Positions 2,197-64,000 of a DNA stretch of 64,000 nucleotides are shown here, in pieces (within the stretch, counting starts at the first letter, position 1; every line of letters begins with the position of its first letter). The notes beneath the pieces are model-generated. The model ran no database searches. It was not told the DNA's origin and worked only from the letters and a program-made list of their open reading frames with translations. Origin of the DNA: Escherichia coli (GTDB lineage Bacteria; Pseudomonadota; Gammaproteobacteria; Enterobacterales; Enterobacteriaceae); NCBI GenBank assembly GCA_025544715.1, contig GCA_025544715.1_4109.3; one strand, given 5' to 3'. A program made the translations under genes and the position numbers.

Positions 2197-2290
2197 ATTA
2201 AATCCTCCAAAAATAATTGGTTATTCGAAATATATTCGTATAGTCTTATTTATTGAAGGATTTAATTGTCCAGTCCTTATTGTTTATAAT

Positions 2291-2917
2291 TTATGTATTA
2301 GAATAAATAATGTCCATTGCTTTTTTATGTAAATCATCAATCGTACTGTTATTCTGTACAATTATATCAGGATTGTTTATTCCAATCCAAGCCCACTCAG
2401 ATTCGTGTACTGATTCTAGTTCAACTGGTTTAATATTAATATCCCCTTTATTATAAGAGGCAGCCAAACCATACCAATGTGGTAGAACACGTTGAACTTC
2501 AATAATAGTCCCATTATTTGATCTAATCATTTTTAATTCATTTGGAAAACGGCAATCAGTGATGATGATATTTCCATCTATGTCTTGCATTGATTTTTCT
2601 AAACTGAATACCCAAATATCATTATGAAAATACTTACGCAAAATATTAGTACCATAATTCTGCAATACCCATCGAGGGGATACATCATTACGACCTAACT
2701 TATCACACCAGTACTGATCCGGTTCTTCACGAATCTTACGACTTTCCTTAGTTGACCCCTCAAGCATTTCACGGTCCCATCCAAAGATAGCAGCAACTGA
2801 ATCTTTTAGATTGGTTGCGAATGACATTCGTGTGTAACCATTATTAATAAAAGATTCACCAAATGTATCTTTACCACTTCCAATAGTTCCGTTGATTGCA
2901 ATTATTTGTCTTCCCAT
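2291..2917 (-). CDS. Deoxynucleoside monophosphate kinase (T4 gp1-like)
   Basis: P-loop GTIGSGKDT; segments resembling T4 gp1 as recalled. Confidence 0.75.
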   Translation of the reverse strand: MGRQIIAINGTIGSGKDTFGESFINNGYTRMSFATNLKDSVAAIFGWDREMLEGSTKESRKIREEPDQYWCDKLGRNDVSPRWVLQNYGTNILRKYFHNDIWVFSLEKSMQDIDGNIIITDCRFPNELKMIRSNNGTIIEVQRVLPHWYGLAASYNKGDINIKPVELESVHESEWAWIGINNPDIIVQNNSTIDDLHKKAMDIIYSNT

Positions 2918-2935
2918 TATACTACTCCATGTATT

Positions 2936-3205
2936 TTATATAATTTCTATTAAATCCTTTCCTACTAAACTTTCAAGTAATCCAAGAATTGACTCATTAC
3001 CATAATATATAGAAACATAAGTAATAAAAAATGTTTCCCCATCATCATCACGATATATACTCGCCCATGCATTTATTCGATCTCTACCGATAACATCAAT
3101 GATTGAATCTTTGATAAATTTCCAGTACTTTTCAGTTGATTCATAATCAAGCGTTGGTCTACCACAACGATATCTGTTATACGTTACATTTATGTTATTA
3201 TTCAT
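2936..3205 (-). CDS. Hypothetical protein (89 aa)
   Basis: ORF in co-directional array; no motif recognised. Confidence 0.4.
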   Translation of the reverse strand: MNNNINVTYNRYRCGRPTLDYESTEKYWKFIKDSIIDVIGRDRINAWASIYRDDDGETFFITYVSIYYGNESILGLLESLVGKDLIEII

Positions 3206-3250
3206 GACAAGTTCCTTTAGATTAATATTATCATTATATCACATAATATG

Positions 3251-3275
3251 AAAAAAGACTCCATATAGGAGTCCT
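3251..3275 (-). terminator. Rho-independent terminator
   Basis: Hairpin GGACTCC-TATA-TGGAGTC then T6 on minus strand, after stop of 3282-4088. Confidence 0.6.
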
Positions 3276-3281
3276 TTTAAT

Positions 3282-4088
3282 TTAACCAATAATCATACCG
3301 AGTGGTTCAGCACCATCTTGATAACGTTTCAAACGCTCTTTAAGCTGTTCTTGAAGCTGTAAACCTTCATTGCGTAAGGTATCACCATCCATAGAAAACG
3401 TTCCCTGTGGTCCAGGAAGCGATGCAAATTTAGCACGGTTACGACCCAACATTATCATTGCTTCGGATAAAGCCCAATCACGCAACCAAGGATAACTTTG
3501 CTGCCTTTGGAACAACAATGGTTCAGGAATATTATGATACACGTGTAATAGTACTTCTTCAGTACCACGAATATCACGATCTATAATTAATTTTTTGGTC
3601 ATTGGGTTAAATTGAAATATAATATCACGACCAAACATACGACCTACCAGTTCTTGGAACTGAAAACTAAAATCATATGTAGTTAGATCATATCCACCAG
3701 CATTTCGTGCTGAAGTCAATAAGTAAGTGTTGGTGAATGCTAGAGAAAACGGGTCTACTGAGTTCCCACTACCAGAACTTAAGTAACCATTACCATAACG
3801 ATAAATCTTTTTAACAATTTCAACTTCAGTTGGTAGCATATATACAGATTGTGAATCATAAAATTTCATATTTAAAAATGCTTCTTCTTTAGAAGCAGAA
3901 CTCCACGCTCTGTAATTCGATACCGCATTATCAATTGCAATTTCTAATTGACCATCAGTAATTTCTACCTCAACGGCCCCAGCACCCAACATTTGAGTGA
4001 TAACATCTTTCAGTTTTTCACGATGGTCAAAGTTAGGAGCATCAGGGTTTCCACCCATATAATCGTAAGACATAAAAAAGCACCTCAT
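3282..4088 (-). CDS. Hypothetical protein (268 aa), possibly virion or tail-associated
   Basis: ORF followed by terminator hairpin at 3251-3275; position near sheath; no motif recognised. Confidence 0.45.
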   Translation of the reverse strand: MRCFFMSYDYMGGNPDAPNFDHREKLKDVITQMLGAGAVEVEITDGQLEIAIDNAVSNYRAWSSASKEEAFLNMKFYDSQSVYMLPTEVEIVKKIYRYGNGYLSSGSGNSVDPFSLAFTNTYLLTSARNAGGYDLTTYDFSFQFQELVGRMFGRDIIFQFNPMTKKLIIDRDIRGTEEVLLHVYHNIPEPLLFQRQQSYPWLRDWALSEAMIMLGRNRAKFASLPGPQGTFSMDGDTLRNEGLQLQEQLKERLKRYQDGAEPLGMIIG

Positions 4089-4123
4089 TAATGTTTATAT
4101 ACATTATTTAGAGGTGCTAATAG

Positions 4124-4342
4124 TTATTTTGAATTATACAAGCAGTACAGGTATACCAATGGAGTAAAATGTTCGGAATCTATTATATATATTAACTGAG
4201 TAACATATATTCCATATAGATCTCGTGATTTATCTCTGTACATTAACAATGATTTATTTAAGTAAGGATCAACCCAGTACTTAATATCATTGTACTTCAA
4301 CGTGTTGTTACGGTAACCTGATAGTTTTGAATTTTTATTCAA
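4124..4342 (-). CDS. Hypothetical protein (72 aa)
   Basis: ORF in array. Confidence 0.35.
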   Translation of the reverse strand: MNKNSKLSGYRNNTLKYNDIKYWVDPYLNKSLLMYRDKSRDLYGIYVTQLIYIIDSEHFTPLVYLYCLYNSK

Positions 4343-4712
4343 TTTTCTTACAATTACTCAGTAAGTGAATGATATCATCAGCAGTGAATGGTCCCAATAC
4401 CAGAACTTCTTCACCATTACCGAAAATGCTCAATGGTACTGATTGTTGACCAGCTAGATATTCAATTTGTTCCAGTTCGAAAATGTCATCAGCAGCATAA
4501 ACTACCTGCTCCATTTCATTATCTTTAATCCATGACTGCCAATGTTCTTTAAACTTCTTAGCTTCGTATTCTTGAACATAGTTAGGTGATTCAGGGTTAT
4601 ATTGATGTAACATAGTCATCCCAGCCATTACTAATTCTTTAGGGGATGGTGTAGAATCTTTCAGTACTACGATAGCTTGGATAGTTTTTACTTTAACGTC
4701 ATTAGCAGCCAT
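4335..4712 (-). CDS. Hypothetical protein; possible peptidyl-tRNA hydrolase PTH2-like fold
   Basis: C-terminal VLVLGPFTADDI resembles PTH2 VLGIGPxPADLI from memory; weak. Confidence 0.3.
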   Translation of the reverse strand: MAANDVKVKTIQAIVVLKDSTPSPKELVMAGMTMLHQYNPESPNYVQEYEAKKFKEHWQSWIKDNEMEQVVYAADDIFELEQIEYLAGQQSVPLSIFGNGEEVLVLGPFTADDIIHLLSNCKKIE

Positions 4713-4724
4713 TATATACCTCTA

Positions 4725-5042
4725 TTATAGAATGATTTTATTCTCAGGAACGAAAACTTTTGGAGTGTTTTCGATTGCTTTAATAGCATCAACATAAGCA
4801 TCAACTAATGCAGGGTTTGCATCACTAACACTAATAATGTTGGATTTATAAAAAATAACATTTTTCTCCATACTAACAAACTCTAGATAATCACGAAGAA
4901 TGATTTCACCATTTTCGTCAGTCCCTAGTTGTGCTGGGTAGTTAACTACAACAGCTTCAGCAGAATCGGTTTGAAGAACTGCTAGTACTGGGCCAATGTT
5001 ATTGATGTTTAGTAGTTTAACGGTCATAGTCATTTTTGTCAA
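4725..5042 (-). CDS. Hypothetical protein (105 aa)
   Basis: ORF in array. Confidence 0.4.
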   Translation of the reverse strand: MTKMTMTVKLLNINNIGPVLAVLQTDSAEAVVVNYPAQLGTDENGEIILRDYLEFVSMEKNVIFYKSNIISVSDANPALVDAYVDAIKAIENTPKVFVPENKIIL

Positions 5043-5052
5043 GTCCTTTTGT

Positions 5053-5529
5053 TTATTTTAGAATATATAAGTGTTTTTCTGCATTGACCAGACGGTGATC
5101 AATGATTTCTTTGATAACGTTCCAGTTACCGCCGCCCAAATCGGCTCCAATTTTCGGGAAATGTACATGAACATCTCGATCAACTTTACAAAAATAATTT
5201 AGATGTTTGAACACATCGTCGATTGCATCATAACTGACATATTTAGCACCGTCATTACCGTACATTTTTTGGGTAATACAGTTTGCAATAATCAAATTAT
5301 CGTTAATTGCTGAATATGCAATTTGTCCAATTCTAAGAAATCCCATTTCCTTTTCATATGCTTTATAATCATCATATGCCATTGGATAACGATTTCTTAG
5401 TTCTTTTGCAAAACCTGAACCCATTTTACCCTGTGCGTTACAACCATGAGCAATTATATGTATTGCTGTTTTATCATCTGTTACAGTACTGAATAATTCA
5501 AACAGATTACCTCGGTGTTCATGAATCAT
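5053..5529 (-). CDS. Macro-domain-like (ADP-ribose binding/processing) protein
   Basis: Gly-rich loops HGCNAQGKMGSGFA and FPKIGADLGGGNW resemble macro domain signature. Confidence 0.45.
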   Translation of the reverse strand: MIHEHRGNLFELFSTVTDDKTAIHIIAHGCNAQGKMGSGFAKELRNRYPMAYDDYKAYEKEMGFLRIGQIAYSAINDNLIIANCITQKMYGNDGAKYVSYDAIDDVFKHLNYFCKVDRDVHVHFPKIGADLGGGNWNVIKEIIDHRLVNAEKHLYILK

Positions 5530-6359: not shown

Positions 6360-6761
6360 TTATTTCCTTCTATTTCTTTGAAAAGCTTTAACAGCTTTAA
6401 TAATACTGTTACACATTCGTTCAGTCAAATACTTTTGACATTCTCGTACATCAATGTACATGAACTTATCCAATTCTGGATGACTCTTACCATATCTATT
6501 AGTGTAAGTACTTTTACAAACTAATTCATCTGGTATTGGTTTGTCTTTGGCAGTATAAAAGAAAAGTACTAACCTTTTTCCCTTTCTATAGGATACATCA
6601 CCAAGAAACAGAAGATCATCTTCATCGATTTCGTATCCTGTCTCTTCGAAACATTCACGTACAGCAGCTTCTTTGAAAGTTTCATTACCCTCAGCTTTCC
6701 CTTTAGGTAAATCCCAATGATTCTGTCCGTGTTGTATGTCCGATAAGTATCTGACCATCAC
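6360..6761 (-). CDS. Nudix hydrolase
   Basis: Canonical Nudix box GKAEGNETFKEAAVRECFEETGY. Confidence 0.75.
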   Translation of the reverse strand: MMVRYLSDIQHGQNHWDLPKGKAEGNETFKEAAVRECFEETGYEIDEDDLLFLGDVSYRKGKRLVLFFYTAKDKPIPDELVCKSTYTNRYGKSHPELDKFMYIDVRECQKYLTERMCNSIIKAVKAFQRNRRK

Positions 6762-6868: not shown

Positions 6869-7981
6869 TTAGAACATTTGTTTGATTGCTTCGTAACGAA
6901 GTTCACAAACAAAATCACGAATTTCTGACGTTTCAAGTTCACCATCTTTAACCATTTGCTGAATATCAGGTAATTCAACATCAGTATAACGATCATAAAC
7001 TTTAATAATTAGATCTTCAAGTTCTAAATCAATTTCTTTTCGCAAAATGAAGTATTCCAAAACTTTATAAAGGAATTCTTCACCTCCGTTATTTTTAATA
7101 TTCATATCCAATAAAATATTACCCATTTCAATTGGGGTCTTTTTACGGAATGTTTTGATATCATCACGGAAACGTTTGATATAATTACTAAATTTAACAT
7201 ACTTAACTGGAACTTTAATAGCACCGTTAAGTACTGAATCATTATTTACTTCTTCATTTTCTAGAAGAATAGACCACAGAAAATATGGTTTATATACATC
7301 AGTACAGTTATCTGAAATATAATCAATAAGGTCTAAATTCTTTTTGGTCAAAGATGTATTAAACACCTTTTCGTAATAACCAAATTTACTTAGCGTCTTA
7401 AGGAACTTTGAAGGCTTTTCTTCAGAAAATGCTTTTTCGAATTCCACAAAAACACGGTCAGGAACAAGATGATTTAGCTCACCACTATTGACCATTCCAA
7501 TAGCGAGTTCCTCAGTGCTTTCATGAATAGTAAAGTCTGAATAACGAGTAGCAAATCGAGCAAGACGTAACACGCGTAATGGATCTTCTTTAAAATGGTC
7601 AGAAACATGACGTAGTACCTTGTTCTTGATATCAGCTTTACCACCGTATGGATCGATGTGAATTTGTAGTACTGGATCATACGCAATTGCATTAATTGTA
7701 AGGTCACGGCGATACAAATCTTGTTCTAGTGTTACGCCTTTTGTATCCACTTCAAAGCCACCATATCCAGTACCAGTTTTACGCTCAGTACGGGCTAATG
7801 CGTGTTCATTACCTTCTGGACTTAGATATACTGGGAAATCCTTACCTACTTGCTTATAGCCAATACTTTGCAAGTACTTAAGATCAGATTCGGATGCACC
7901 AACAATGACATAATCTTTGTCTTTTGCACGAAGACCCATTAAACGGTCACGGACGTAACCGCCAACCAAATACTTTTTCAT
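6869..7981 (-). CDS. cca: tRNA nucleotidyltransferase (CCA-adding enzyme / poly(A) polymerase family)
   Basis: Head-domain motifs GGYVRDRLMG...DKDYV and RRDLTINA. Confidence 0.75.
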   Translation of the reverse strand: MKKYLVGGYVRDRLMGLRAKDKDYVIVGASESDLKYLQSIGYKQVGKDFPVYLSPEGNEHALARTERKTGTGYGGFEVDTKGVTLEQDLYRRDLTINAIAYDPVLQIHIDPYGGKADIKNKVLRHVSDHFKEDPLRVLRLARFATRYSDFTIHESTEELAIGMVNSGELNHLVPDRVFVEFEKAFSEEKPSKFLKTLSKFGYYEKVFNTSLTKKNLDLIDYISDNCTDVYKPYFLWSILLENEEVNNDSVLNGAIKVPVKYVKFSNYIKRFRDDIKTFRKKTPIEMGNILLDMNIKNNGGEEFLYKVLEYFILRKEIDLELEDLIIKVYDRYTDVELPDIQQMVKDGELETSEIRDFVCELRYEAIKQMF

Positions 7982-9580: not shown

Positions 9581-9913
9581 TTACTCTTCGTTTTCTGTCA
9601 AATCATCAAGAACTGGGTGTTCTGGATGGTTTCGGCGGTGTAATTTAATGCTTTTGTCTTTACTGAATACAGTTTCCATCTTATCAAAAGATTCAACAAT
9701 TGCTTTATACAAATCAGCATCATCAGCAGTGACTGATTTACTACCAGCAGTTAAAGTTACAGCATATTGAGTTTTATGCTCTTTCTTAACATGAACACCA
9801 ATGTCTAGTACTGAAGAAGTACGGTACTTATCCAGACTTTTTGCTTCATTGTAAATAGCATCTTGGATTGCTGGAGTGATATCAACGTTGCCTTGAATAT
9901 TTAGATTTAGCAT
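9581..9913 (-). CDS. hpf: Ribosome hibernation promoting factor (HPF/RaiA family)
   Basis: N-terminus MLNLNIQGNVDITPAIQDAI...KSLDKY parallels E. coli HPF MQLNITGNNVEITEALREFV...KLEQY from memory. Confidence 0.7.
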   Translation of the reverse strand: MLNLNIQGNVDITPAIQDAIYNEAKSLDKYRTSSVLDIGVHVKKEHKTQYAVTLTAGSKSVTADDADLYKAIVESFDKMETVFSKDKSIKLHRRNHPEHPVLDDLTENEE

Positions 9914-11024: not shown

Positions 11025-11435
11025 TTAATCGTAGTAGGTTCTACCTACAGTTATGTGATATTTAAAGTACTTGGTTGGTAGTCCTAGTTCGTTTCTAATG
11101 TGTGTGATGAAATCATCTTCAAATTCAATGATAAAGAATGAACCTGGATTCTTTTTATCTTTTACTATCTCAATAGAAGGATTGAACTTTATCTTTACTT
11201 TCATTCCATCGTATTTTTTCCAGAACTCTTCATGTGGTGGTACTTCACCACGCACTATACTAACATGTGCTCCCCATTGAGGATCTTTAACATCAATATG
11301 TAAATCAGTTCTGATGAAGTACTGGTAGTATCTAACCAACTGTAATGGAAGTTGTAGTACTAACCAGAAGTCCTTCTTCTTTTTCATAGTGCCACGATCT
11401 GGATCATACACCAGAGTTCCTTCCATTTCAATCAT
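11025..11435 (-). CDS. 2H phosphoesterase superfamily protein (LigT/Acb1-like)
   Basis: Two H-x-[ST]-x motifs (HVSIV and HITVG) with spacing typical of 2H fold. Confidence 0.5.
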   Translation of the reverse strand: MIEMEGTLVYDPDRGTMKKKKDFWLVLQLPLQLVRYYQYFIRTDLHIDVKDPQWGAHVSIVRGEVPPHEEFWKKYDGMKVKIKFNPSIEIVKDKKNPGSFFIIEFEDDFITHIRNELGLPTKYFKYHITVGRTYYD

Positions 11436-40654: not shown

Positions 40655-40681
40655 TAAAAAATCCCTGCCAAAAGACAGGGA
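40655..40681 (-). terminator. Rho-independent terminator
   Basis: Hairpin TCCCTG-loop-CAGGGA then T6. Confidence 0.55.
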
Positions 40682-40785
40682 CGAAAAACTGAAATAACAC
40701 ATGGAGTTCTTTTTAATTTAATAAAAAGTATTATTATTCTTATAAAAGTATTTATTAAGAACTCCACAATATGGCTTCAAATGAA

Positions 40786-40974: not shown

Positions 40975-41042
40975 TTTATATCTCCTTCTGTATTATGATA
41001 ACAACATTATATCATGTATGGGACATAATGTCCCATACAATA

Positions 41043-42482
41043 TTACATATTTTCTTCAGCAAATTCAGCCAGTGGTGAACGAACAACACCTTCTAGTTCG
41101 ATGACACGACAACCTGCCCAGTCTTTAAACTTCTCAGTTACATAAGTCAAACCACTGTTAACTGGACTAATAAACTTACTGTCAATCTGACTCAAGTTAC
41201 CCATAATTACTACTTTACAGTTTAACCCTGCTCGTGTCAAGATGGTTTTTGCTTGTGCAGGTGTAATGTTTTGGAATTCATCAACTACTAGAATAGTGTT
41301 GGTGAATGAACGTCCACGTACAAAGTTTAGTGCTTTAAATTGAATAACATTACGTTTCATAATCTCTTCAATACTACCTTGTGGGTTAGCATCATCTTTA
41401 TGAAGAAACTCTAACGCATCAATCGCGGCTCCACAGAATGGAATCACTTTTTCTGCTTCTGAACCTGGCAAGAAACCAATATCTTCAAACTGTGAGTCTT
41501 GAGTTTTAGAGAAGATGATTCGGTCGTATTTACGTTTTTCCAGTACTAATTCCAATGCAGTAGCAATCGTAATTAGTGTTTTACCAGTACCAGCAGAACC
41601 TAGCAGTACTGTTAGATGTACATCAGGATCGAGAATACTGTTGATAGCGAGTGCTTGTTGGATATTCTTTGCTTTAATATCCCATACTTTAGCACGTAAA
41701 GCCACTGATTGTCCAATGTCTTGGAATACCAAAATATCTTCTGGTGTTAGTGTTCCATCATCTTCCTCAATTGCTGATTGTCCTTCGTACACAAATAATA
41801 CGTCAGCATCATCATATAGGTAATCACCGATGCATAGATTTTGTGGAAGCAGATGTTCAATCAAGCTTTTAGAAATGTAATGATACAAACGACGACCAAC
41901 TTGTTCGGATTGAATATTAGTATTGGTTAAGTTGCTGTATACTTCCCAAAAATTGATTTCCAGATGGTGTTGACCAATGTGAATCAAATCACTATCACCA
42001 ATAACAATATCATGGCGATAATCTTGTACCTCGACACCATAACTTAGTGCTTTGATACGCATGTTGATATCACGAGTTACCAGTACTGATTCTGTTGCTA
42101 AAGCTACCAGAATGATTTTATCATCAGGTACAGTACTTTTGAGAAGGGTTTGAACTTTCTCTTCTGTACCTTTAGTACGAATTAGTGCCTCAGCTTCTTC
42201 GTTTGTAATAACAAACAATTTGCTATCAGGATTCATATTGGTATGAACATCAGCAATATTAACACCAGTACTACTAATCTCGTCATGTGATGCATCTGCA
42301 ATAATTGCTTCAATGTTACGAATAGCAACACGTGCATCGCGTGAAACATCTACATTACGACTCTTAATCGAATCTAATTCTTCCAGTACTGTAAATGGTA
42401 GAATGATTGCAGCACCATCAAAAGCAATAGATGCATTAGGGTCAGATAGTAGTACGTTTGTGTCAATTGTATATTTTTTCAT
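41043..42482 (-). CDS. phoH: PhoH-family ATPase with N-terminal PIN domain (PhoH2-type)
   Basis: Walker A GSAGTGKT; N-terminal PIN-like YTIDTNVLLSDP. Confidence 0.7.
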   Translation of the reverse strand: MKKYTIDTNVLLSDPNASIAFDGAAIILPFTVLEELDSIKSRNVDVSRDARVAIRNIEAIIADASHDEISSTGVNIADVHTNMNPDSKLFVITNEEAEALIRTKGTEEKVQTLLKSTVPDDKIILVALATESVLVTRDINMRIKALSYGVEVQDYRHDIVIGDSDLIHIGQHHLEINFWEVYSNLTNTNIQSEQVGRRLYHYISKSLIEHLLPQNLCIGDYLYDDADVLFVYEGQSAIEEDDGTLTPEDILVFQDIGQSVALRAKVWDIKAKNIQQALAINSILDPDVHLTVLLGSAGTGKTLITIATALELVLEKRKYDRIIFSKTQDSQFEDIGFLPGSEAEKVIPFCGAAIDALEFLHKDDANPQGSIEEIMKRNVIQFKALNFVRGRSFTNTILVVDEFQNITPAQAKTILTRAGLNCKVVIMGNLSQIDSKFISPVNSGLTYVTEKFKDWAGCRVIELEGVVRSPLAEFAEENM

Positions 42483-42542
42483 AAAACATCCTTGAGTTAT
42501 GAGTACATCCTTGTACTCGACTAATGTTATTGACTCGGATTA

Positions 42543-42845
42543 TTACATATTTGGTTCGTATTCAACATAGCAACGTGAACCTCGAACCTTTTCTTCCCAG
42601 CACTCCTGGTAAACAAGTTGACCAATTGAAACTGGTTCTCTTGATAGTCCATTACGTACTTCACCACTTTGGGTTTTATACATGAATGAACATTTGGACT
42701 CGCTACATTGTCCTAAACTAACAACTTCTGCGGTATTGTAGTGAATGTTGGTACGCTTAGTGTTCTCGTGATACTGTCCGAACCAAAGAACTCCTGCACC
42801 TAACAGAACAGTACAAATAAGACTTTTAATGTGTGTTTGAATCAT
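42543..42845 (-). CDS. Membrane-anchored small protein (100 aa)
   Basis: N-terminal TM helix; Cys-rich. Confidence 0.4.
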   Translation of the reverse strand: MIQTHIKSLICTVLLGAGVLWFGQYHENTKRTNIHYNTAEVVSLGQCSESKCSFMYKTQSGEVRNGLSREPVSIGQLVYQECWEEKVRGSRCYVEYEPNM

Positions 42846-43162
42846 AATGCGTTAAATCCATTGTTTAAGTATGTTTCAATATTAATTTTACCAACAGGAT
42901 TACTACTGTGAACAAAGTACTCAAACGGTTCTTTAATATTATTATCAAACATATAATCAATAAGAAACTTAGCAAAAGAATATCCAGTCTTTTCGTCTTC
43001 GCTCACATCACCCAAGTCATGGTCGAATGATACAAATGCTGGAATTCCATTTTCAATAACATATTCACATGCACTTTTAAAGTCACGACATACCACCATA
43101 TCTTGGTTTGGATAATATAGATTTGCATCACGAATATCATCCAAAAACATTGAGTAAGACAT
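42842..43162 (-). CDS. Cyclic-phosphate processing receiver (CPR) domain protein
   Basis: Pattern FLDDIR...VSFDHDLG...TGYSFAKFL matches CPR signature as recalled. Confidence 0.55.
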   Translation of the reverse strand: MSYSMFLDDIRDANLYYPNQDMVVCRDFKSACEYVIENGIPAFVSFDHDLGDVSEDEKTGYSFAKFLIDYMFDNNIKEPFEYFVHSSNPVGKINIETYLNNGFNAL

Positions 43163-43171
43163 GTTAAACTC

Positions 43172-43723
43172 CTATAGATAACTAATTAGTAAGTTTTCTT
43201 TTTGAACCAGATACTCCAATTCTTGTTTTGCTGTACCGATGAAGTTCTGTGTCATAAGATTATTATATCCCGCTTCTCGATTTTGTCCCTTAGAATAACG
43301 AGAAATATGACATAAATTTACACCAGCAACTTCAGCACTCGCATGTTTAGCATTAGTGTATCCATCTCTAATGTGTTTCAACTCGTCATAGCTTACTTCA
43401 TAGCTAAAACTATGACTGTTTGCACCTGGGTAAATTTCAAAAGTTTTGAGTGGTCGGAGATGGGAAACAAAAATATTGTAATCCATTTCTTCTTGAACTT
43501 CACGACGCAATGCATCTTCTAATGAGATATCAGTACTTTCTACGGTTCCACCACATCCACCAAGAAGACCATCCCATCGTAATTGTAGTAAAACTAAATT
43601 TACTTCTGGTATATCATTCAACTCATAGTTTTTGTAAGGGTTGCATTTTCTTGCAAAGAAATAACAAAATACAAAATTTGCACGTGAGCCATATTCACCA
43701 AAGGGAACTTCTTTAACACTCAT
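43172..43723 (-). CDS. Nudix-like hydrolase (second copy)
   Basis: Degenerate Nudix box ...RREVQEEMDY; operon with Sir2 and CPR. Confidence 0.5.
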   Translation of the reverse strand: MSVKEVPFGEYGSRANFVFCYFFARKCNPYKNYELNDIPEVNLVLLQLRWDGLLGGCGGTVESTDISLEDALRREVQEEMDYNIFVSHLRPLKTFEIYPGANSHSFSYEVSYDELKHIRDGYTNAKHASAEVAGVNLCHISRYSKGQNREAGYNNLMTQNFIGTAKQELEYLVQKENLLISYL

Positions 43724-44478
43724 TTCATACGTTCCTTAATTATAGTCTCTAGATGTGGTATTGCTTTGGTTGCTGGCTTGATAACTTTTTCATTAAACAA
43801 AAAATCATTATCATTTTTACGAATGTTAACATTAACACTATAACATGGCAATGCTGCTGCTAATCTCGACCATACCAGTACTGTATCGCTACTACCAATT
43901 ACAATAACTGTATCATTTTCATTAAGAGATTTCAACACATTATTTCGTTCTTCGTAAATTGGTAAGCGAATACCATCAACATAACGATGATATTCTCCAA
44001 TCATTACTACATTTGGTTTAGCAAAAACATCATGCTTTGGTATGTATGGTTCGTATCCGCAGTTAATAACATTATAATCATCGGAATTAATACTATAATT
44101 TTCAATAACTTCGCACAAGTTTCCATGAAGTTTAAGCTCATGACCACCAATACGAGTATAAAGATCATCCATGTTAGAAGTCATATGAAGGAAGCAATCA
44201 CCATATTGATCTTCTAACGATTTTATAAAATAATGCATTGCATTGGGTTCGCATTGTCCCAATTTTACACGTAATGTATTATAGAAGGAATGAACAACGT
44301 GATATTTTGTAGTTAAACTAGCAATGTTACATACATCATTAATTTTAAATGTATCCCACAAACCATCATCAAATCGAAAAGGTTCCATACCACTTTCAAC
44401 GGAAAGTCCTGCACCTGATATAATCAGTAATCGTTTTTTACCTTCATTGCTTATAAATTTTTCTGATATCATATTCAA
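43720..44478 (-). CDS. Sir2-family (sirtuin/CobB-like) NAD-dependent enzyme
   Basis: GAGLSVESGMEPFR, PNAMH, TSNMDDLYTRIG, HGNL align with CobB GAGISAESGIRTFR, PNAAH, TQNIDNLHERAG, HGEL. Confidence 0.75.
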   Translation of the reverse strand: MNMISEKFISNEGKKRLLIISGAGLSVESGMEPFRFDDGLWDTFKINDVCNIASLTTKYHVVHSFYNTLRVKLGQCEPNAMHYFIKSLEDQYGDCFLHMTSNMDDLYTRIGGHELKLHGNLCEVIENYSINSDDYNVINCGYEPYIPKHDVFAKPNVVMIGEYHRYVDGIRLPIYEERNNVLKSLNENDTVIVIGSSDTVLVWSRLAAALPCYSVNVNIRKNDNDFLFNEKVIKPATKAIPHLETIIKERMK

Positions 44479-44481
44479 TCC

Positions 44482-44676
44482 TTATAAAAAACCAATTAAA
44501 TATATTGATAATAACAGAATGATTCCAATATGATAGGCATACATAAAATTATTATCTTTGTGATAACCTTTGGATGTCAAGTCCCTATATAAGCATTTAG
44601 CATTGTTATAAATTACAACAATAGAAAAAACTATAAAAAAACTCAAAACCCATTCATAAATTGTGTATGCCATCAT
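44482..44676 (-). CDS. Small membrane protein (64 aa)
   Basis: Two hydrophobic helices. Confidence 0.35.
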   Translation of the reverse strand: MMAYTIYEWVLSFFIVFSIVVIYNNAKCLYRDLTSKGYHKDNNFMYAYHIGIILLLSIYLIGFL

Positions 44677-44694
44677 CTATTCTCTCTTATAATT

Positions 44695-45291
44695 TTAATA
44701 CTTTAAAACATCAAACTCTGCACTTACACTAGTTACATTATCACTGACAATTTTAAAAATTGATTTGATGCGTTCATGTAGTGGTACTTTTGATTCATTC
44801 TCAACTTCAATATATGCTTGCATTGCTGCAATAGCATGATATGTCCCGCTACCTACGGCTGTGATTCGTGTTTTCGGTTGAAGAACTGAAAAATCTTCTT
44901 GAACTTCATAAATTGTATGATTGTGGAGAATGATGAACTGACCACCACCTACTTCTTGTGAAGGATCACGAGAACCCCATTCCTCTTTGAACATTTGACG
45001 AATAATAGGAATAACTTTCAGTACTAAGTACTGTGGGAACGTCTCATTGGCATCTTGCTGTGGTAGATTCAAACTGTAAGTAAGAAGTTGACCCATACGG
45101 AATGATGTGGTGTAACCAATCGCCATAATTTCTTTTGTACGGGTCAAACCAGCATCATCATTGATTTTAATGAATTCTTTCTCAAATACTTTAGGCTCAG
45201 TTTGAACTGATTTTGTGAAACCATTACTTCCTAGTTTGTCCCCTGCAATAAAAGAAGTTACACCATCAGTGTGTGCAATGATACATGTCAT
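44695..45291 (-). CDS. HslV/proteasome-beta-like Ntn-hydrolase (start MTCIIA at 45291)
   Basis: N-terminal Met-Thr, IAGD and GSGTYHAIAA blocks parallel HslV; ATGA overlap with upstream gene. Confidence 0.5.
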   Translation of the reverse strand: MTCIIAHTDGVTSFIAGDKLGSNGFTKSVQTEPKVFEKEFIKINDDAGLTRTKEIMAIGYTTSFRMGQLLTYSLNLPQQDANETFPQYLVLKVIPIIRQMFKEEWGSRDPSQEVGGGQFIILHNHTIYEVQEDFSVLQPKTRITAVGSGTYHAIAAMQAYIEVENESKVPLHERIKSIFKIVSDNVTSVSAEFDVLKY

Positions 45292-45548
45292 AAAATAGCT
45301 CCAATTGCAAATAAAGTTGTATATAAAATATAAATCAATGTACCTAATAACATTAGACACACCAAATATGATGTTGCCAGAACATAATAAATTATTGCTT
45401 CAAACTTTGAATTGAACTTCATTGTTGTGTTATCAATAAAGCCATTTTTGTAATCTTTGTAAATGAAAACTGTTAGGAAAAGTACAGTAATATACATCAC
45501 TACTGTAGCATAAAAAATAATAGATGTCAAATTTTGGATGTTTGTCAT
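45288..45548 (-). CDS. Membrane protein (86 aa)
   Basis: Hydrophobic helices. Confidence 0.4.
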   Translation of the reverse strand: MTNIQNLTSIIFYATVVMYITVLFLTVFIYKDYKNGFIDNTTMKFNSKFEAIIYYVLATSYLVCLMLLGTLIYILYTTLFAIGAIL

Positions 45549-45618
45549 AGTTATATAATCTCAATATAATTAATAACAAAGGAAGTACAACATAATCATC
45601 CTGTTATTTTAATTATTT

Positions 45619-46227
45619 TTATTGGTTTACTGATCCATATCGGATTAGTTCAGTTTTTGTCAAGATAACAACATCTTCACCACGAGAACGGCTAACTTTA
45701 TATAGAACGTCTGGTGGAATTCCATTTGCAGAATATAGTGTAAATAGAAAACCTACTTTAGTTGCCATTTCTTCAGTAAAAGTTGATAGCTGCCTAACTG
45801 ATACAAAAGAATTATCACCGTCTTTAACATTACTTTTAATAGAAATGTTATGAAGTCCCAGTACTGAGCGATTTATCATGTATCGCTTTTCAAAAGCTAC
45901 ACTAAAGAATACCACAGTACATGCTGAGTTGCAATACCTAGAAACAATTAAATTTATACCATTGTCTCTAACGAAGTTTGCCATTTTAATTCCAGCATCA
46001 AAATCACCACCTGGTGATGTGATTGTAATGGTATCATAGTGTTCTTTATCATACAACTCCATCATACGCTTGAGTGATCCATCTGTAATATCTGAGATGA
46101 AATATACATTACGTGTTTCTGGATTGTACTTTATCACATTTTTACGTTCAACACCAGCACTGGCTGGAAAATTTATCAACATCAGAAGCATTACTGCTTG
46201 TACTACCTCAAGCCATAGTCTTTTCAT
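45619..46227 (-). CDS. Secreted ClpP/S49-fold serine peptidase-like protein
   Basis: Signal-peptide-like N-terminus; ITSPGGDFDAG motif. Confidence 0.5.
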   Translation of the reverse strand: MKRLWLEVVQAVMLLMLINFPASAGVERKNVIKYNPETRNVYFISDITDGSLKRMMELYDKEHYDTITITSPGGDFDAGIKMANFVRDNGINLIVSRYCNSACTVVFFSVAFEKRYMINRSVLGLHNISIKSNVKDGDNSFVSVRQLSTFTEEMATKVGFLFTLYSANGIPPDVLYKVSRSRGEDVVILTKTELIRYGSVNQ

Positions 46228-46255
46228 AACAAATCCTTAATTTTGGTTAGGAAGA

Positions 46256-46263
46256 TATAAATA
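46256..46263 (+). promoter_or_regulatory. T4-late-promoter-like box TATAAATA (plus strand)
   Basis: Exact octamer ~150 nt upstream of plus-strand gene start. Confidence 0.25.
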
Positions 46264-46409
46264 ATATAGTACTTAAACACTTAAGTCAAACTTTTTCTGT
46301 ACTTAACTCAAATTTCCCTCATCAGATAATCCCCTTAGTACAATCACTGTGAAGATTCTATCACAAACCCATACCAAATGTAAAGCTTTTTTTATAAGGA
46401 GTGCCCTTC

Positions 46410-48335
46410 ATGGGAAAACCAATTGCAGGACAAGACCAATTTCCATTCACTATAGGTGGATATTTAGTTGATGGTGCAAACATAAAAGGTACAACATATG
46501 TAAAATCGTTGTACATCTACAAACAGCGTTCCTCTGATTTGTATGATTTAATGGATTCAAATGGAACAATATATCGTTTTATTCGTATTGTTGGATATGG
46601 TCAAGATGGTAACAGATTAAATTATTTTACACCAGCAGAAGAAATTGTACCAAATCTGGCGACCAATACATTTTTTATAAAAGTTCAAGATGCTGAAAGA
46701 AATATATTTTCATTTGTTAGATTGTACCAATTAAATAAAATAATAACATTCGATGGTGATTATATTTTTAGAAAAATAGATAAAGATCGTTATCTAAGTG
46801 GTGTGTTAATTCAACCATCATTAACTACATTACAAGTTGGTAAAACCAGTTCACTGCATTGTGTATTCTACCCTAATGATTACTATGATACTGATGGAAC
46901 TTGGTACATAAACGACCATTCTGATATAAATCCAGAAATACCTAGTAAGTATGCTAAAATCATAGAATATAATAAAAATGAAGTATCTATTGAAGGAACA
47001 TCGGTGGGTATGTCAATACTTTCATTTGTTCCTAAAAATAATAAATCCATAATTTCACATTCTCTTATTAACATTGTTAATGAAAATGTAGATATAGAAT
47101 ACATGGTTGCCGAAAGAAGTTCTCCATTTTTTAATCATTATATTGGCAATGAATGGACTATTCAAATAGTCACATATCCGTATGACGCGACTATACAATA
47201 CCCTCTTGAAATCGTAATCGATGCGGAAGTAGATCCTTATATGAAAATTGCCACTACCGAGTTAGTTGGAGTCTCTGAAAATAATAAAATATATACATTT
47301 AAATCAACACTTGAGCCAGATTTAGAATATTATATAGATTATTATCCACAAATCACCTTCACTATGAATGAACCTTACAAATTTAGTGCATTGTTTGAAA
47401 ATAAAATTTGTTTGTCTGGTTGGGAAAGATATTGTGAAAAAATTACCAGTCCTGGAAAGTTATTTTCTATTGATGAATATGTACGTCCAAACACGACTAA
47501 AACATTAAAATATTGGTTAATGAATGATTATGACCAACATATGTATCCAATACGTTCAACTGATGATGAAATTGCCACAATTGATGTAACAACTGGTATA
47601 TTGAGAACTTACGATAAAAGAGGAACAGTATCTTTCTATACAAATTATACTGATATAACTACTGGGGCCATTAGTCAAGATGAATATTTAGTTGGGAAAC
47701 TAACCGTTACAGACGATGTGTACGATTTAATCGAGGTAGAACCATCAAATATACAATATATGTTCCCAAATCAATCACAACAATTCACGTTAACTGGTTA
47801 TAGAGAAGGTTATCCAAATACATCTTTTAATGTTAATGTAAGTATGTTGAACAATTATGCAACTTCTTCAAACAATATCGTCACTATTAACGAAAATACA
47901 TCTAATAACTCTAGATTTAAGATAGTATCAGATTTCAATGGTAATTATAAAAACTTTAGTAGTATATATTCTAATCAAACACCATCTATTATAGTAAAAA
48001 CAAATCCAAATGATTTAACTCCAATACAAAGTATTGATGTTTCTGAAAATGAAATTTTATCTATAAGAATGGCTGAAGAAAATGAAATAGATGATTATAA
48101 AGTTAGTTTTTATCCAAAACCAAATTATTGTGTTAATTATGAACTTGAAATTGTATCATATGATAATACTATAATTGAAATATATGATAAAGAAAATGCA
48201 TTAAAAAACGGGCTAAATTATTATGGTAATATTATGTTATACATAACACCAAAAAGTCCTGGAAGTACCGAGATTGTTGTTAGATCTGTTCATTACCCAG
48301 ATGTACAACAATCTGTAAAAGTAGTTGTTTATTAA
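46410..48335 (+). CDS. Plus-strand large protein (641 aa from ATG 46410), possible virion decoration/adhesin
   Basis: AGGAG RBS 9 nt upstream; N-terminal ~110 aa paralogous to next gene; Asn/Ser/Thr/Tyr-rich. Confidence 0.55.
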   Translation: MGKPIAGQDQFPFTIGGYLVDGANIKGTTYVKSLYIYKQRSSDLYDLMDSNGTIYRFIRIVGYGQDGNRLNYFTPAEEIVPNLATNTFFIKVQDAERNIFSFVRLYQLNKIITFDGDYIFRKIDKDRYLSGVLIQPSLTTLQVGKTSSLHCVFYPNDYYDTDGTWYINDHSDINPEIPSKYAKIIEYNKNEVSIEGTSVGMSILSFVPKNNKSIISHSLINIVNENVDIEYMVAERSSPFFNHYIGNEWTIQIVTYPYDATIQYPLEIVIDAEVDPYMKIATTELVGVSENNKIYTFKSTLEPDLEYYIDYYPQITFTMNEPYKFSALFENKICLSGWERYCEKITSPGKLFSIDEYVRPNTTKTLKYWLMNDYDQHMYPIRSTDDEIATIDVTTGILRTYDKRGTVSFYTNYTDITTGAISQDEYLVGKLTVTDDVYDLIEVEPSNIQYMFPNQSQQFTLTGYREGYPNTSFNVNVSMLNNYATSSNNIVTINENTSNNSRFKIVSDFNGNYKNFSSIYSNQTPSIIVKTNPNDLTPIQSIDVSENEILSIRMAEENEIDDYKVSFYPKPNYCVNYELEIVSYDNTIIEIYDKENALKNGLNYYGNIMLYITPKSPGSTEIVVRSVHYPDVQQSVKVVVY

Positions 48336-61270: not shown

Positions 61271-61515
61271 TATAATAAACCTCTCACATAAAACATTGAT
61301 GAAAATAGATAATCATTAGTACTTGTGTTTAGTTGTTTAGAAAAGTTATATTTTTTATCTTTATTTTCGTATAAAGACAATCTATAGAACATTTCTATAT
61401 TTTCTAAGTATTCTTTTTGTAACAACATCTGTGTTTTTACATTCATTACAATATACCTTAAAAGAAAAAGGGACCAACATATGATCCCTTTTGTATTAGA
61501 AATTTCCTTCTGCAA
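61270..61515 (-). CDS. Hypothetical protein (81 aa)
   Basis: ORF in array. Confidence 0.35.
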   Translation of the reverse strand: MQKEISNTKGIICWSLFLLRYIVMNVKTQMLLQKEYLENIEMFYRLSLYENKDKKYNFSKQLNTSTNDYLFSSMFYVRGLL

Positions 61516-62428
61516 CTTGAAAAACTTTCAAGCCAAGTAGTTTACGCCACATGAATACAACTTGATCGCGGTCATCATAAACCTTTTTAACATCGTAATG
61601 ATCAACCACATTTTTCATGTACAGGTCGAATTTTACAACATCATCGGGACGTTTATCATCGATGTCTCGCATAAACAATGCATCGTAAGGAACACCCCAA
61701 TTCTTAAGCCACTGTTCGGTATCAGCACGACACCCTTCAGTACGCCCACTCATGACGATAATCTTGCGTTTATGAAAAACTGCTTCAGCGATAATAGACA
61801 AAATAACTTCTTCATCTGGTGTATCCTGAAGAACAGTACTTTCATCGTAAGGATTACGACCCCATTTATGAGCAAGAGTACCGTCAATATCAACGATAAC
61901 AGCAGCTTCTCGTGAATTACCATAGTAACCAATGTGCATGGCCTTACTATAATAGTACGTATCTGCCATAGTGTCAATGATATTATCTTGTACAGAACGC
62001 TCACGCATGAGGTTACGTTTCTTACAAAGTTTTACGAACTCTTTAATCTTAAAGAAAACATGAACATCTGCACCACGATCTTCATTCGGTACAAAATCTT
62101 CGTAGAAGTTCTTTTCTTTGTAGTCGTATTCATTATCTTTAGCCCAACGTTTCCATTCATCACGGAAATGTTGTTTAAGGTTCGTATCGGACACAATGAT
62201 GTTCCAACCATTCTCTGCTGCTGAATTTGCTGCACTGAACTGCATTTTAGTTACGTACTGCTCATTAGCGTCGTTGAATTTGTATGCATCATGTGACCCA
62301 GCCATAGATTCACGAATATCATCACGGTTGATGTTGATAGTCTTTGATTTGGCATTTTTAATTTCTTGAACTGCCCATGTAGTTTTACCACAACCAGGCA
62401 ACCCAACTGTTAGTGTAATAGTTGGCAT
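61496..62428 (-). CDS. pseT: Polynucleotide 5'-kinase/3'-phosphatase (T4 PseT-like)
   Basis: P-loop GLPGCGKTT; HAD motif VIVDIDGTL; C-terminus DDRDQVVFMWRKLLGLKVFQVAEGNF parallels T4 Pnk from memory. Confidence 0.85.
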   Translation of the reverse strand: MPTITLTVGLPGCGKTTWAVQEIKNAKSKTININRDDIRESMAGSHDAYKFNDANEQYVTKMQFSAANSAAENGWNIIVSDTNLKQHFRDEWKRWAKDNEYDYKEKNFYEDFVPNEDRGADVHVFFKIKEFVKLCKKRNLMRERSVQDNIIDTMADTYYYSKAMHIGYYGNSREAAVIVDIDGTLAHKWGRNPYDESTVLQDTPDEEVILSIIAEAVFHKRKIIVMSGRTEGCRADTEQWLKNWGVPYDALFMRDIDDKRPDDVVKFDLYMKNVVDHYDVKKVYDDRDQVVFMWRKLLGLKVFQVAEGNF

Positions 62429-63524: not shown

Positions 63525-63974
63525 CTAAAAATCCTTTAGTACAATTTTCATGTATTTTATAAGAGTCTCTTTGTAATCAACTTTCTTATTGTTATACATT
63601 GCAAAGGCCAAGCCCTGACGATTCAGTTCATTAGTTAAACACTCCTGAACCTTCATTGCGAATTCCTTTCGCTCCAAGTGCTTGTGTTCCTTGACGAAGC
63701 TTTCTACTTCATCTTGTAATGCATTATAGCACGAAAATACCAATTGTTCCATTCTTAATATCTTTTGCATAGCATATTCATCAGTACTGAACAATTGTTT
63801 TAAATCATCACTTGAACCATTTAATACGGCTTCATATAAATGAGAATCAATAATAATACTATCTTTTGTAAGATGTAATGAACTGTACCAGTCAGTCTTT
63901 ATTTTACACATTGTTCCATTATTTAGGATGCACACAAAACCCTCAATATCAAGCATTTTATGAACTTCCTCCAC
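63525..63974 (-). CDS. Hypothetical protein (149 aa)
   Basis: ORF near window end. Confidence 0.4.
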   Translation of the reverse strand: MEEVHKMLDIEGFVCILNNGTMCKIKTDWYSSLHLTKDSIIIDSHLYEAVLNGSSDDLKQLFSTDEYAMQKILRMEQLVFSCYNALQDEVESFVKEHKHLERKEFAMKVQECLTNELNRQGLAFAMYNNKKVDYKETLIKYMKIVLKDF

Positions 63975-64000
63975 GCTTTCACGGAAGGTATTTCGTACCG

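Follow-up and report, generated by a model that had tools for sequence, protein, structure and literature searches.

A sirtuin, Nudix and cREC gene block of a RaK2-like jumbo phage and its possible link to RNA-end repair

The sequence analysed here, a 64,000-nucleotide stretch of contig GCA_025544715.1_4109.3 from an Escherichia coli assembly (hereafter, the window), carries a gene block centred on a sirtuin (Sir2), a Nudix hydrolase and a protein with a cREC domain. Across its whole length, region 41000-46500 shares 98.3% identity with Escherichia phage 121Q, an Asteriusvirus and RaK2-like jumbo myovirus, and ~95% with PBECO4-type phages. An initial annotation had reported three consecutive, co-directional genes for a Sir2-family enzyme, a Nudix-like hydrolase and a CPR-domain protein, the last corresponding to the Pfam 'cyclic-phosphate processing receiver domain' (cREC). 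All three genes were found in those positions on the minus strand, and a Pfam profile search placed the three domain assignments well over the curated cut-offs. They belong to a longer conserved block, in the order small membrane open reading frame (ORF), sirtuin, NUDT16-type Nudix, cREC, four-cysteine membrane protein and PIN-PhoH. We identify this block, with high confidence, as a conserved RaK2-like jumbo-phage block, the sirtuin-centred neighbourhood that Iyer et al. 2022 classed as 'type 1'.

From the sirtuin to PIN-PhoH, the genes of the block are contiguous and all on the minus strand, with spacers of 0-60 nt. The sirtuin gene (43720..44472, 250 aa) is followed by that of the NUDT16/X29-type Nudix hydrolase (43172..43723, 183 aa), whose start overlaps the Sir2 stop (ATGA), and by the gene of the cREC protein (42842..43162, 106 aa), located 9 nt past the Nudix gene and in frame with it. 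Overlapping stop and start codons had been proposed for both junctions; the Sir2/Nudix overlap exists, but Nudix and cREC are separated by a TAG plus 9 nt in the same frame. The three genes had also been described as an operon in themselves. They are real, but two further genes come next. The cREC stop overlaps (ATGA) the start of a fourth gene (42543..42845), whose product of 100 aa has a hydrophobic helix at its N-terminus and four cysteines, matches PHROG 14661 'membrane protein' (3.9e-44) and gave no Pfam match. PIN-PhoH (41043..42482, 479 aa), a PhoH2-like RNA helicase/nuclease, begins 60 nt further on and is the last gene of the conserved block. It matches PIN_4 (8e-20), PhoH (7e-44) and the NCBIfam model 'RNA 5'-3' helicase PhoH2' (2.6e-44, under the equivalog cut-off), and it is 68-80% identical to its counterparts in phages BF and K64-1. 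In 121Q, the five genes are annotated as gp476 'Sir2', gp477 'nudix hydrolase', gp478 'hypothetical', gp479 'membrane protein' and gp480 'PhoH-like'.

Among viral contigs, 80 cREC loci were detected, 8 of them RaK2-like, with 34 other loci left after dereplication. The five-gene block was present in the same order in all eight RaK2-like loci, and the four-cysteine membrane protein occupied the same position in each. This protein is a membrane member translationally coupled to cREC within a cassette of soluble enzymes.

The sirtuin matches Pfam SIR2 (PF02146) with an E-value of 3.7e-20 and 73.1 bits (cut-off 24), covering profile positions 1-178 of 180. Its ORF had been listed from a TTG at 44478; the gene is there, but the ATG at 44472 is the likelier start, given an AAGGA 6 nt upstream and the agreement of the 121Q annotation. 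The Sir2 motifs, previously described as intact, are indeed present (GAGLSVESG, PNAMH, TSNMDDL and HG) and show little or no variation among 27 family members, with G20, G22, S27, G28, P76, N77, H80, N100, D102, H116, G159 and E160 the same in all. A sequence search of the PDB retrieved E. coli CobB as the best match (E~1e-22), followed by archaeal Sir2 (Af1/Af2) and SIRT5. An AlphaFold (AF2) model of the sirtuin, with a predicted local distance difference test (pLDDT) score of 91.7, superposed best on CobB, with a template modelling (TM) score of 0.77-0.86 and 28% identity. The top 50 Foldseek matches of this model were all CobB, Af1/Af2, SIRT5 or Sir2Tm, and no defence-type Sir2 structure (ThsA- or DSR-like) was among them. 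The PADLOC defence models did not match the sirtuin either (E<=0.01). Both a Sir2 of the defence type (ThsA, DSR, SIR2-HerA and others) and a defence system borne by the phage were therefore rejected, given the lack of a PADLOC match and the exclusively housekeeping sirtuins among the fold matches.

A plain CobB orthologue was likewise rejected, since the NCBIfam equivalog models of CobB, with their cut-offs of 243-320, give the protein only 85-93 bits, and the zinc-binding cysteines are lost. The four-cysteine zinc ribbon of the small domain is absent from the sirtuin alignments, where only C119 and C138 are found, neither of them conserved. The CobB row in these alignments is a visual reference only. 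The sirtuins of T5, rV5-like and RaK2-like phages all lack the zinc cysteine cluster of CobB. In its place lies a family-specific segment with invariant E121, Y140, P145 and K152; E121 and the G139-Y140 pair form a signature common to the three phage groups and absent from CobB. RaK2-like members have, in addition, an 8-residue insertion directly after the FGE-type loop, and the region after this loop is the peptide docking place in sirtuins. CobB Tyr92 is retained as Y64 in the phage sirtuin, whereas CobB Arg95, which binds acidic acyl groups, is replaced by Leu. Together, the loss of the zinc cysteines, the E121/G-Y140 signature, the sub-cut-off CobB scores and the lack of defence matches support the assignment of the phage sirtuins to a distinct zinc-less clade. 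It has been stated in print that most viral sirtuins form a clade of their own. A tblastn search detected relatives of the sirtuin in 987 phage records, with T5-, rV5- and RaK2-like phages among them. Word-indexed homologue searches returned 28 close relatives for Sir2 and 13 for the Nudix protein, all standalone.

The Nudix protein matches Pfam Nudt16-like (PF22327) with an E-value of 1.3e-18 and 67.9 bits (cut-off 27), as well as NUDIX (7e-7), and corresponds to PHROG 9999. It is homologous over nearly its full length to Xenopus X29 (1u20, 2.8e-12, residues 37-178) and to human NUDT16 (~3e-11). X29 and NUDT16 decap RNA and, in addition, hydrolyse ADP-ribose as well as its protein-linked form. 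In the catalytic helix, REVQEE aligns with the RELEEE of X29 and the metal-binding glutamates are retained. The protein is predicted to be an active enzyme because it keeps this motif, unlike the inactive paralogue TIRR/Syndesmos, which was also among the matches.

The cREC protein matches Pfam cREC_REC (PF20274) with an E-value of 1.5e-22 and 80.5 bits (cut-off 27); a sequence search of the PDB retrieved no match for it. An AlphaFold model built from a 56-sequence alignment (pLDDT 96.5) has a receiver-like fold of four strands, so that the canonical five-stranded (beta-alpha)5 receiver architecture is not reproduced. Against receivers, ~85 residues align to domains of ~120 residues at ~10-17% identity. 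Across the 56 sequences, D8, D9, R11, F46, D47, H48, D49, L50, N88 and G91 are invariant, and H85, S86 and P89 nearly so. This DD...DHD...HS-N pattern speaks for an active site and not for a phospho-acceptor switch. The family is large: an exhaustive profile search of 1.84 billion proteins retrieved 8430 cluster representatives at 50% identity (E<=1e-3). Nine long cREC proteins (190-333 aa) had no second Pfam domain. The authors who described cREC report that it never occurs together with histidine kinases (PMC7824862), and its role as a cyclic-phosphate or ADP-ribose-phosphate esterase is a prediction of theirs (PMC9503650, PMC7824862).

The junction between the Nudix and cREC genes (43163-43174) consists of one TAG and three codons in the same frame (...LLISYL*EFNMSYSMFLDD..., the asterisk marking the stop), and 121Q has the identical arrangement. 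A GGAG lies 7 nt upstream of the cREC ATG. Asteriusvirus JNE01, a more distant relative, likewise has just one in-frame stop, which lies two codons further along. In six of the eight RaK2-like loci, the two domains form a single protein of ~302 aa, BF_0113 in phage BF. The fusion in these relatives is the strongest evidence that both enzymes act on one substrate. The arrangement in the window may be an inherited nonsense split with re-initiation; read-through of the TAG, yielding both split and fused forms, could in principle also occur.

Upstream of Sir2, the window has only a hydrophobic ORF, an HslV-like gene and a ClpP-like protease. The hydrophobic ORF (44482..44676, minus strand, 64 aa) is a tentative gene taken from the ORF list; it falls in a gap of the 121Q annotation, has no family match and ends 9 nt ahead of the Sir2 ATG. 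Small membrane ORFs fill the same slot upstream of the sirtuin in K64-1 and BF. The best promoter-like site of the region, TTGACA-18-GATAAT (44580-44551), lies inside this ORF. The promoter scan as a whole found 40 sites against a shuffled expectation of 30±5.8, not over chance, and the operon boundaries are therefore tentative. No terminator-like site was found between Sir2 and PhoH on the minus strand; the first one downstream of the block is a hairpin with a 9-bp stem and a T-run (40661..40682, minus strand), weak evidence for a possible 3' end of the transcription unit. Further upstream, two protease-like genes lie on the minus strand at 44695-45360 and 45619-46227. One is weakly ClpP-like (Pfam 0.007) and the other is an HslV-family peptidase according to the 121Q annotation; the HslV-like gene has no Pfam match and is 73% identical to EJP02_126.

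We examined which genes accompany cREC and the sirtuin elsewhere. Of the 80 loci, only the eight RaK2-like ones have the sirtuin, the NUDT16-type Nudix, the four-cysteine protein and PIN-PhoH alongside cREC. In the 34 dereplicated loci outside this group, RNA ligase is the commonest Pfam family near cREC, yet it accounts for only 3 of 132 neighbour ORFs; phosphoribosyl pyrophosphate (PRPP) synthetase appears twice among the cREC neighbours. A direct search around all 80 loci found a PNKP-type HAD phosphatase near cREC in 7, a macro domain in 6 and a CCA-adding enzyme in 5. In the rV5-like phage Bas59, an operon with the order RNA ligase, cREC (4.9e-14), sirtuin lies opposite a metallophosphoesterase gene and one that resembles polynucleotide kinase. 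In T5, the sirtuin lies directly ahead of a HAD_SAK_2 'Swiss-army-knife RNA repair' phosphatase (4e-20). After this pair, T5 (locus L088, 6658-7479) has two paralogous DUF7415 genes (1e-29 and 3e-30), with two repeats each.

The initial annotation had further assigned the block to a wider set of genes for NAD (nicotinamide adenine dinucleotide) metabolism and RNA repair. The domain calls are right, but the genes, all on the minus strand, are scattered over 60 kb among unrelated ones (tail, nucleotide-reductase and lysis genes), so that the link is thematic and not that of an operon. Three of the calls were borne out directly: a second, canonical Nudix hydrolase (6360..6761; NUDIX 1.1e-12, box G-x5-E-x7-REC-x-EE-x-GY), a CCA-adding-type tRNA nucleotidyltransferase (6869..7981; PolyA_pol 1.7e-18 and an RNA-binding domain, 3.4e-8) and a T4-type polynucleotide kinase-phosphatase, Pnk (61496..62428; HAD_PNKP 7.6e-44 and a kinase domain, AAA_33 4e-14). 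The macro-domain protein (5053..5529) stays under the Pfam cut-off (Macro 0.009; 16.4 versus 22 bits) but is backed by the DarG macro model (3.9e-8), PHROG 335 (1e-45) and the 121Q annotation. The probable 2H phosphoesterase (11025..11435; 2H-SAK 1.6e-5) falls just short of its cut-off (25.6 versus 27 bits) but has both H-x-S/T motifs (HVSI and HITV).

Four small genes beyond Pnk, and not listed previously, lies the 3' part of a T4 Rnl1-type RNA ligase gene (63525..64000, minus strand; T4_Rnl1_C 7.9e-18), an open frame that runs off the window and whose 121Q counterpart, gp438, is annotated as RNA ligase. Taken with Pnk, it indicates that the phage has a T4-type tRNA repair pair. The Pnk, Rnl1 and CCA-adding genes are 17-37 kb from the sirtuin block and not co-operonic with it. 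No tRNA genes or Rfam families were detected in the whole 64-kb window. At 9581-9913 (minus strand), adjoining a LysM-lysozyme gene, lies the counterpart of 121Q gp533, annotated as an HPF/RaiA-family ribosome-associated protein (hibernation-factor-like), which is unusual for a phage.

Gene content and order, translational coupling, catalytic motifs, predicted folds, the Nudix-cREC fusion and the phage contexts are the observations from which a function for the block can be proposed. Iyer et al. 2022, citing the BF orthologue AQW88637.1, describe this neighbourhood and propose a KptA/Tpt1-like, NAD-dependent RNA-end repair (PMC9503650 section 3.7.3, Fig. 5f), and the contexts checked here (RaK2-like, rV5-like and T5) reproduce the three neighbourhood types of that work. 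As our tentative first choice, we retain a Tpt1-like transfer of ADP-ribose to RNA ends combined with Nudix-cREC breakdown of the product, which would be the mechanism by analogy. It is ranked first because it is the only model covering the changing RNA-end and phosphate-processing partners of the sirtuin in the three phage groups.

In the proposed mechanism, the zinc-less, CobB-derived sirtuin would split NAD+, release nicotinamide and put the ADP-ribose on a phosphate-bearing RNA end, much as KptA/Tpt1 takes off an RNA 2'-phosphate and yields ADP-ribose 1''-2'' cyclic phosphate. Nudix and cREC would then dismantle the ADP-ribose-phosphate product, the Asp/His site of cREC opening or removing the phosphate and the Nudix enzyme cutting the pyrophosphate to give AMP and ribose phosphates, while PIN-PhoH might provide RNA unwinding and cleavage. 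The theme put forward by the initial annotation, NAD or ADP-ribose chemistry serving RNA-end repair or counter-defence, thus fits both the published prediction and the contexts checked here.

Several points weigh against RNA-end repair. To our knowledge, RNA is not a known substrate of any sirtuin. The best sequence and fold match is the protein deacylase CobB, and the phage protein retains Y64 and a hydrophobic acyl pocket. T4-type Pnk/Rnl1 repair generates no 2'-phosphates, which would leave a Tpt1-like step without an obvious substrate, and PIN nucleases are metal-dependent and not expected to yield cyclic phosphates. Outside jumbo phages, the cREC neighbourhood signal is weak, most neighbours being unannotated and the top family reaching only the 3 of 132 ORFs mentioned above. 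The neighbours of the block in most relatives are NAD-salvage and Acb1-type genes, not RNA ligases. In the literature searched, we found no experimental work on phage sirtuins or cREC, although papers on eukaryotic sirtuins dominated the results of one broad query.

The proximity of NAD-salvage genes leads to a second explanation, counter-defence or the scavenging of NAD metabolites, which we regard as possible but rather doubtful. In it, the block would be the distal part of a NAD-centred anti-defence island, in which Nudix-cREC destroys ADP-ribose, ADP-ribose-1''-phosphate or its cyclic phosphate, or Thoeris-type cyclic ADP-ribose isomers; the AMP and ribose phosphates returned could feed PRPP and the NAD-reconstitution pathway NARP2, and the sirtuin would be an accessory or regulatory, NAD-linked component. 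Genes for NMNAT and NAMPT precede the block in Serratia phage BF, Klebsiella phage K64-1 and Escherichia phage EJP2, with a few small ORFs between (intervals 471-4612 in BF locus L004, 1509-4121 in K64-1 locus L005 and 1-5154 in EJP2 locus L090). In CBB, fHe-Yen9-04 and Munch, a similar placement is suggested by the match coordinates of NAMPT and cREC, ~6 kb apart or less. The '2H' gene that BF and EJP2 have beside the sirtuin is a member of Pfam Acb1 (PF23474; 3.6e-15 and 1.8e-17), an anti-CBASS family, and BF also has a phage zinc-binding protein gene upstream of the sirtuin block. The two PRPP synthetases among the cREC neighbours agree with such recycling, as does the cleavage of ADP-ribose by NUDT16-type enzymes, of which PDB complexes were among the Nudix matches. 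NMNAT and NAMPT constitute NARP2, which was shown experimentally to defeat NAD-depleting defences (10.1101/2024.02.11.579819), and host aRES systems produce ADP-ribose-1''-phosphate (10.64898/2026.01.28.702374). A search for the relevant terms in the main text of PMC9503650 found no mention of the NMNAT/NAMPT adjacency or of the Acb1 membership of this 2H gene.

Against counter-defence, the consumption of NAD+ by a sirtuin runs counter to NAD rebuilding, and the adjacency may merely place a NAD supply beside a NAD consumer. Among phosphatases, it is a macro-domain protein and not cREC that has been shown to counter aRES (10.64898/2026.01.28.702374). The lineage of the window, moreover, keeps the block without these companions: the NAMPT and NMNAT proteins of BF, K64-1 and EJP2 had no tblastn match in the window, nor did the Acb1-family 2H proteins (BF_0110 and EJP02_129), and 121Q-type records were absent from the 40 best NAMPT matches. 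The 2H gene at 11025..11435 has no similarity to BF_0110 and sits 31 kb from the sirtuin block. The block would thus work without NMNAT, NAMPT or an Acb1-like gene. The more specific proposal that the block is not an RNA-repair system but the downstream half of an island NMNAT - NAMPT - Acb1-family 2H - sirtuin - Nudix-cREC, with Nudix-cREC as a new eraser of defence-made ADP-ribose derivatives recycling them toward PRPP and NAD+ and the 121Q lineage as a stripped-down version, appears unlikely to us.

We also consider it improbable that the sirtuin is a phage CobB analogue deacylating host or phage proteins, with the Nudix enzyme (with cREC) clearing the O-acyl-ADP-ribose formed. This explanation matches the existing database annotation and the ranking of the sequence and structure matches (CobB, then Af1/Af2 and SIRT5), and the NAD-binding and catalytic motifs, the FGE-type loop, Y64 and the hydrophobic pocket residues are all kept; it is also established that Nudix and macro enzymes degrade O-acetyl-ADP-ribose. 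It is at odds with the clade-specific module that every phage version has in place of the four zinc-ribbon cysteines, the 8-residue insertion of RaK2-like sirtuins at the peptide docking place, scores far under the CobB equivalog cut-offs and the change of R95, the acidic-acyl binder, to Leu, and it leaves cREC, the Nudix-cREC fusion and the RNA-repair partners in rV5-like phages and T5 unexplained. A NADase or signal generator, in which the sirtuin would hydrolyse NAD+ (for host shut-off, superinfection exclusion or an ADP-ribose-derived signal) with Nudix/cREC as the off-switch, is very improbable: many prokaryotic Sir2 domains are NADases and 'toggle' architectures have been raised for jumbo-phage NAD enzymes by Iyer et al. 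2021 (PMC7824862), but this sirtuin lacks a sensor domain, matches no PADLOC defence Sir2, has no ThsA- or DSR-like structure in its top 50 fold matches and would run a futile cycle with the adjoining NAD-synthesis genes of relatives.

If RNA-end repair were confirmed, action on RNA ends would be new chemistry for the sirtuin family; if instead the cassette erased ADP-ribose-derived immune metabolites, the arms race that phages and bacteria wage over NAD would gain a further layer. The window offers a minimal, tractable E. coli-phage version of the cassette as a test case for this biochemical question. Sirtuin homologues occur in the 987 phage records mentioned above, and the cREC family has more than 8000 cluster representatives (50% identity).

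The cassette itself is already known: it is present in dozens of deposited genomes, in which two of the three genes are annotated by function and the third belongs to a Pfam family. The neighbourhood and its proposed mechanism are also in print, and the window adds no new element to them. The genes of the block are orthologous to BF_0112-0115 and in the same order as in the type-1 prototype BF. The window differs from BF in that Nudix and cREC are separate ORFs, divided by one in-frame TAG, instead of fused, and in that neither an adjoining Acb1-family 2H gene nor upstream NMNAT/NAMPT genes are present; NARP2 (Nampt and Nmnat of KVP40) and the anti-CBASS 2H phosphodiesterase Acb1 are thus found near the block in related jumbo phages, but neither in the window. 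Of the T4 Pnk-Rnl1 tRNA repair system, the window has a T4-type Pnk, the end of an Rnl1 and a CCA-adding enzyme, all away from the sirtuin block. With CobB and other class III sirtuins (SIRT5, Af1/Af2), the phage sirtuin has in common the Rossmann core, the NAD-binding motifs, the catalytic His and the FGE-type loop, whereas it is only ~28-32% identical to CobB and differs in the lost zinc-ribbon cysteines, the E121/GY140 module and the post-FGE insertion. Its likeness to KptA/Tpt1 with 2H or macro processing is confined to the proposed logic, in which a phosphate is taken off RNA at the expense of NAD+ and the ADP-ribose phosphate formed is then cleaned up; the proteins are not homologous, the phage enzyme having a sirtuin fold and KptA/Tpt1 an ADP-ribosyltransferase fold, and a Tpt1-like working is suggested by gene context only. 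The phage Nudix shares full-length homology and the catalytic helix with X29 and human NUDT16, but differs in its operon or fusion with cREC. Finally, cREC is set apart from CheY-like receivers by its four strands in the model, extra invariant His residues (DHD, HS-N) and a large family of its own.

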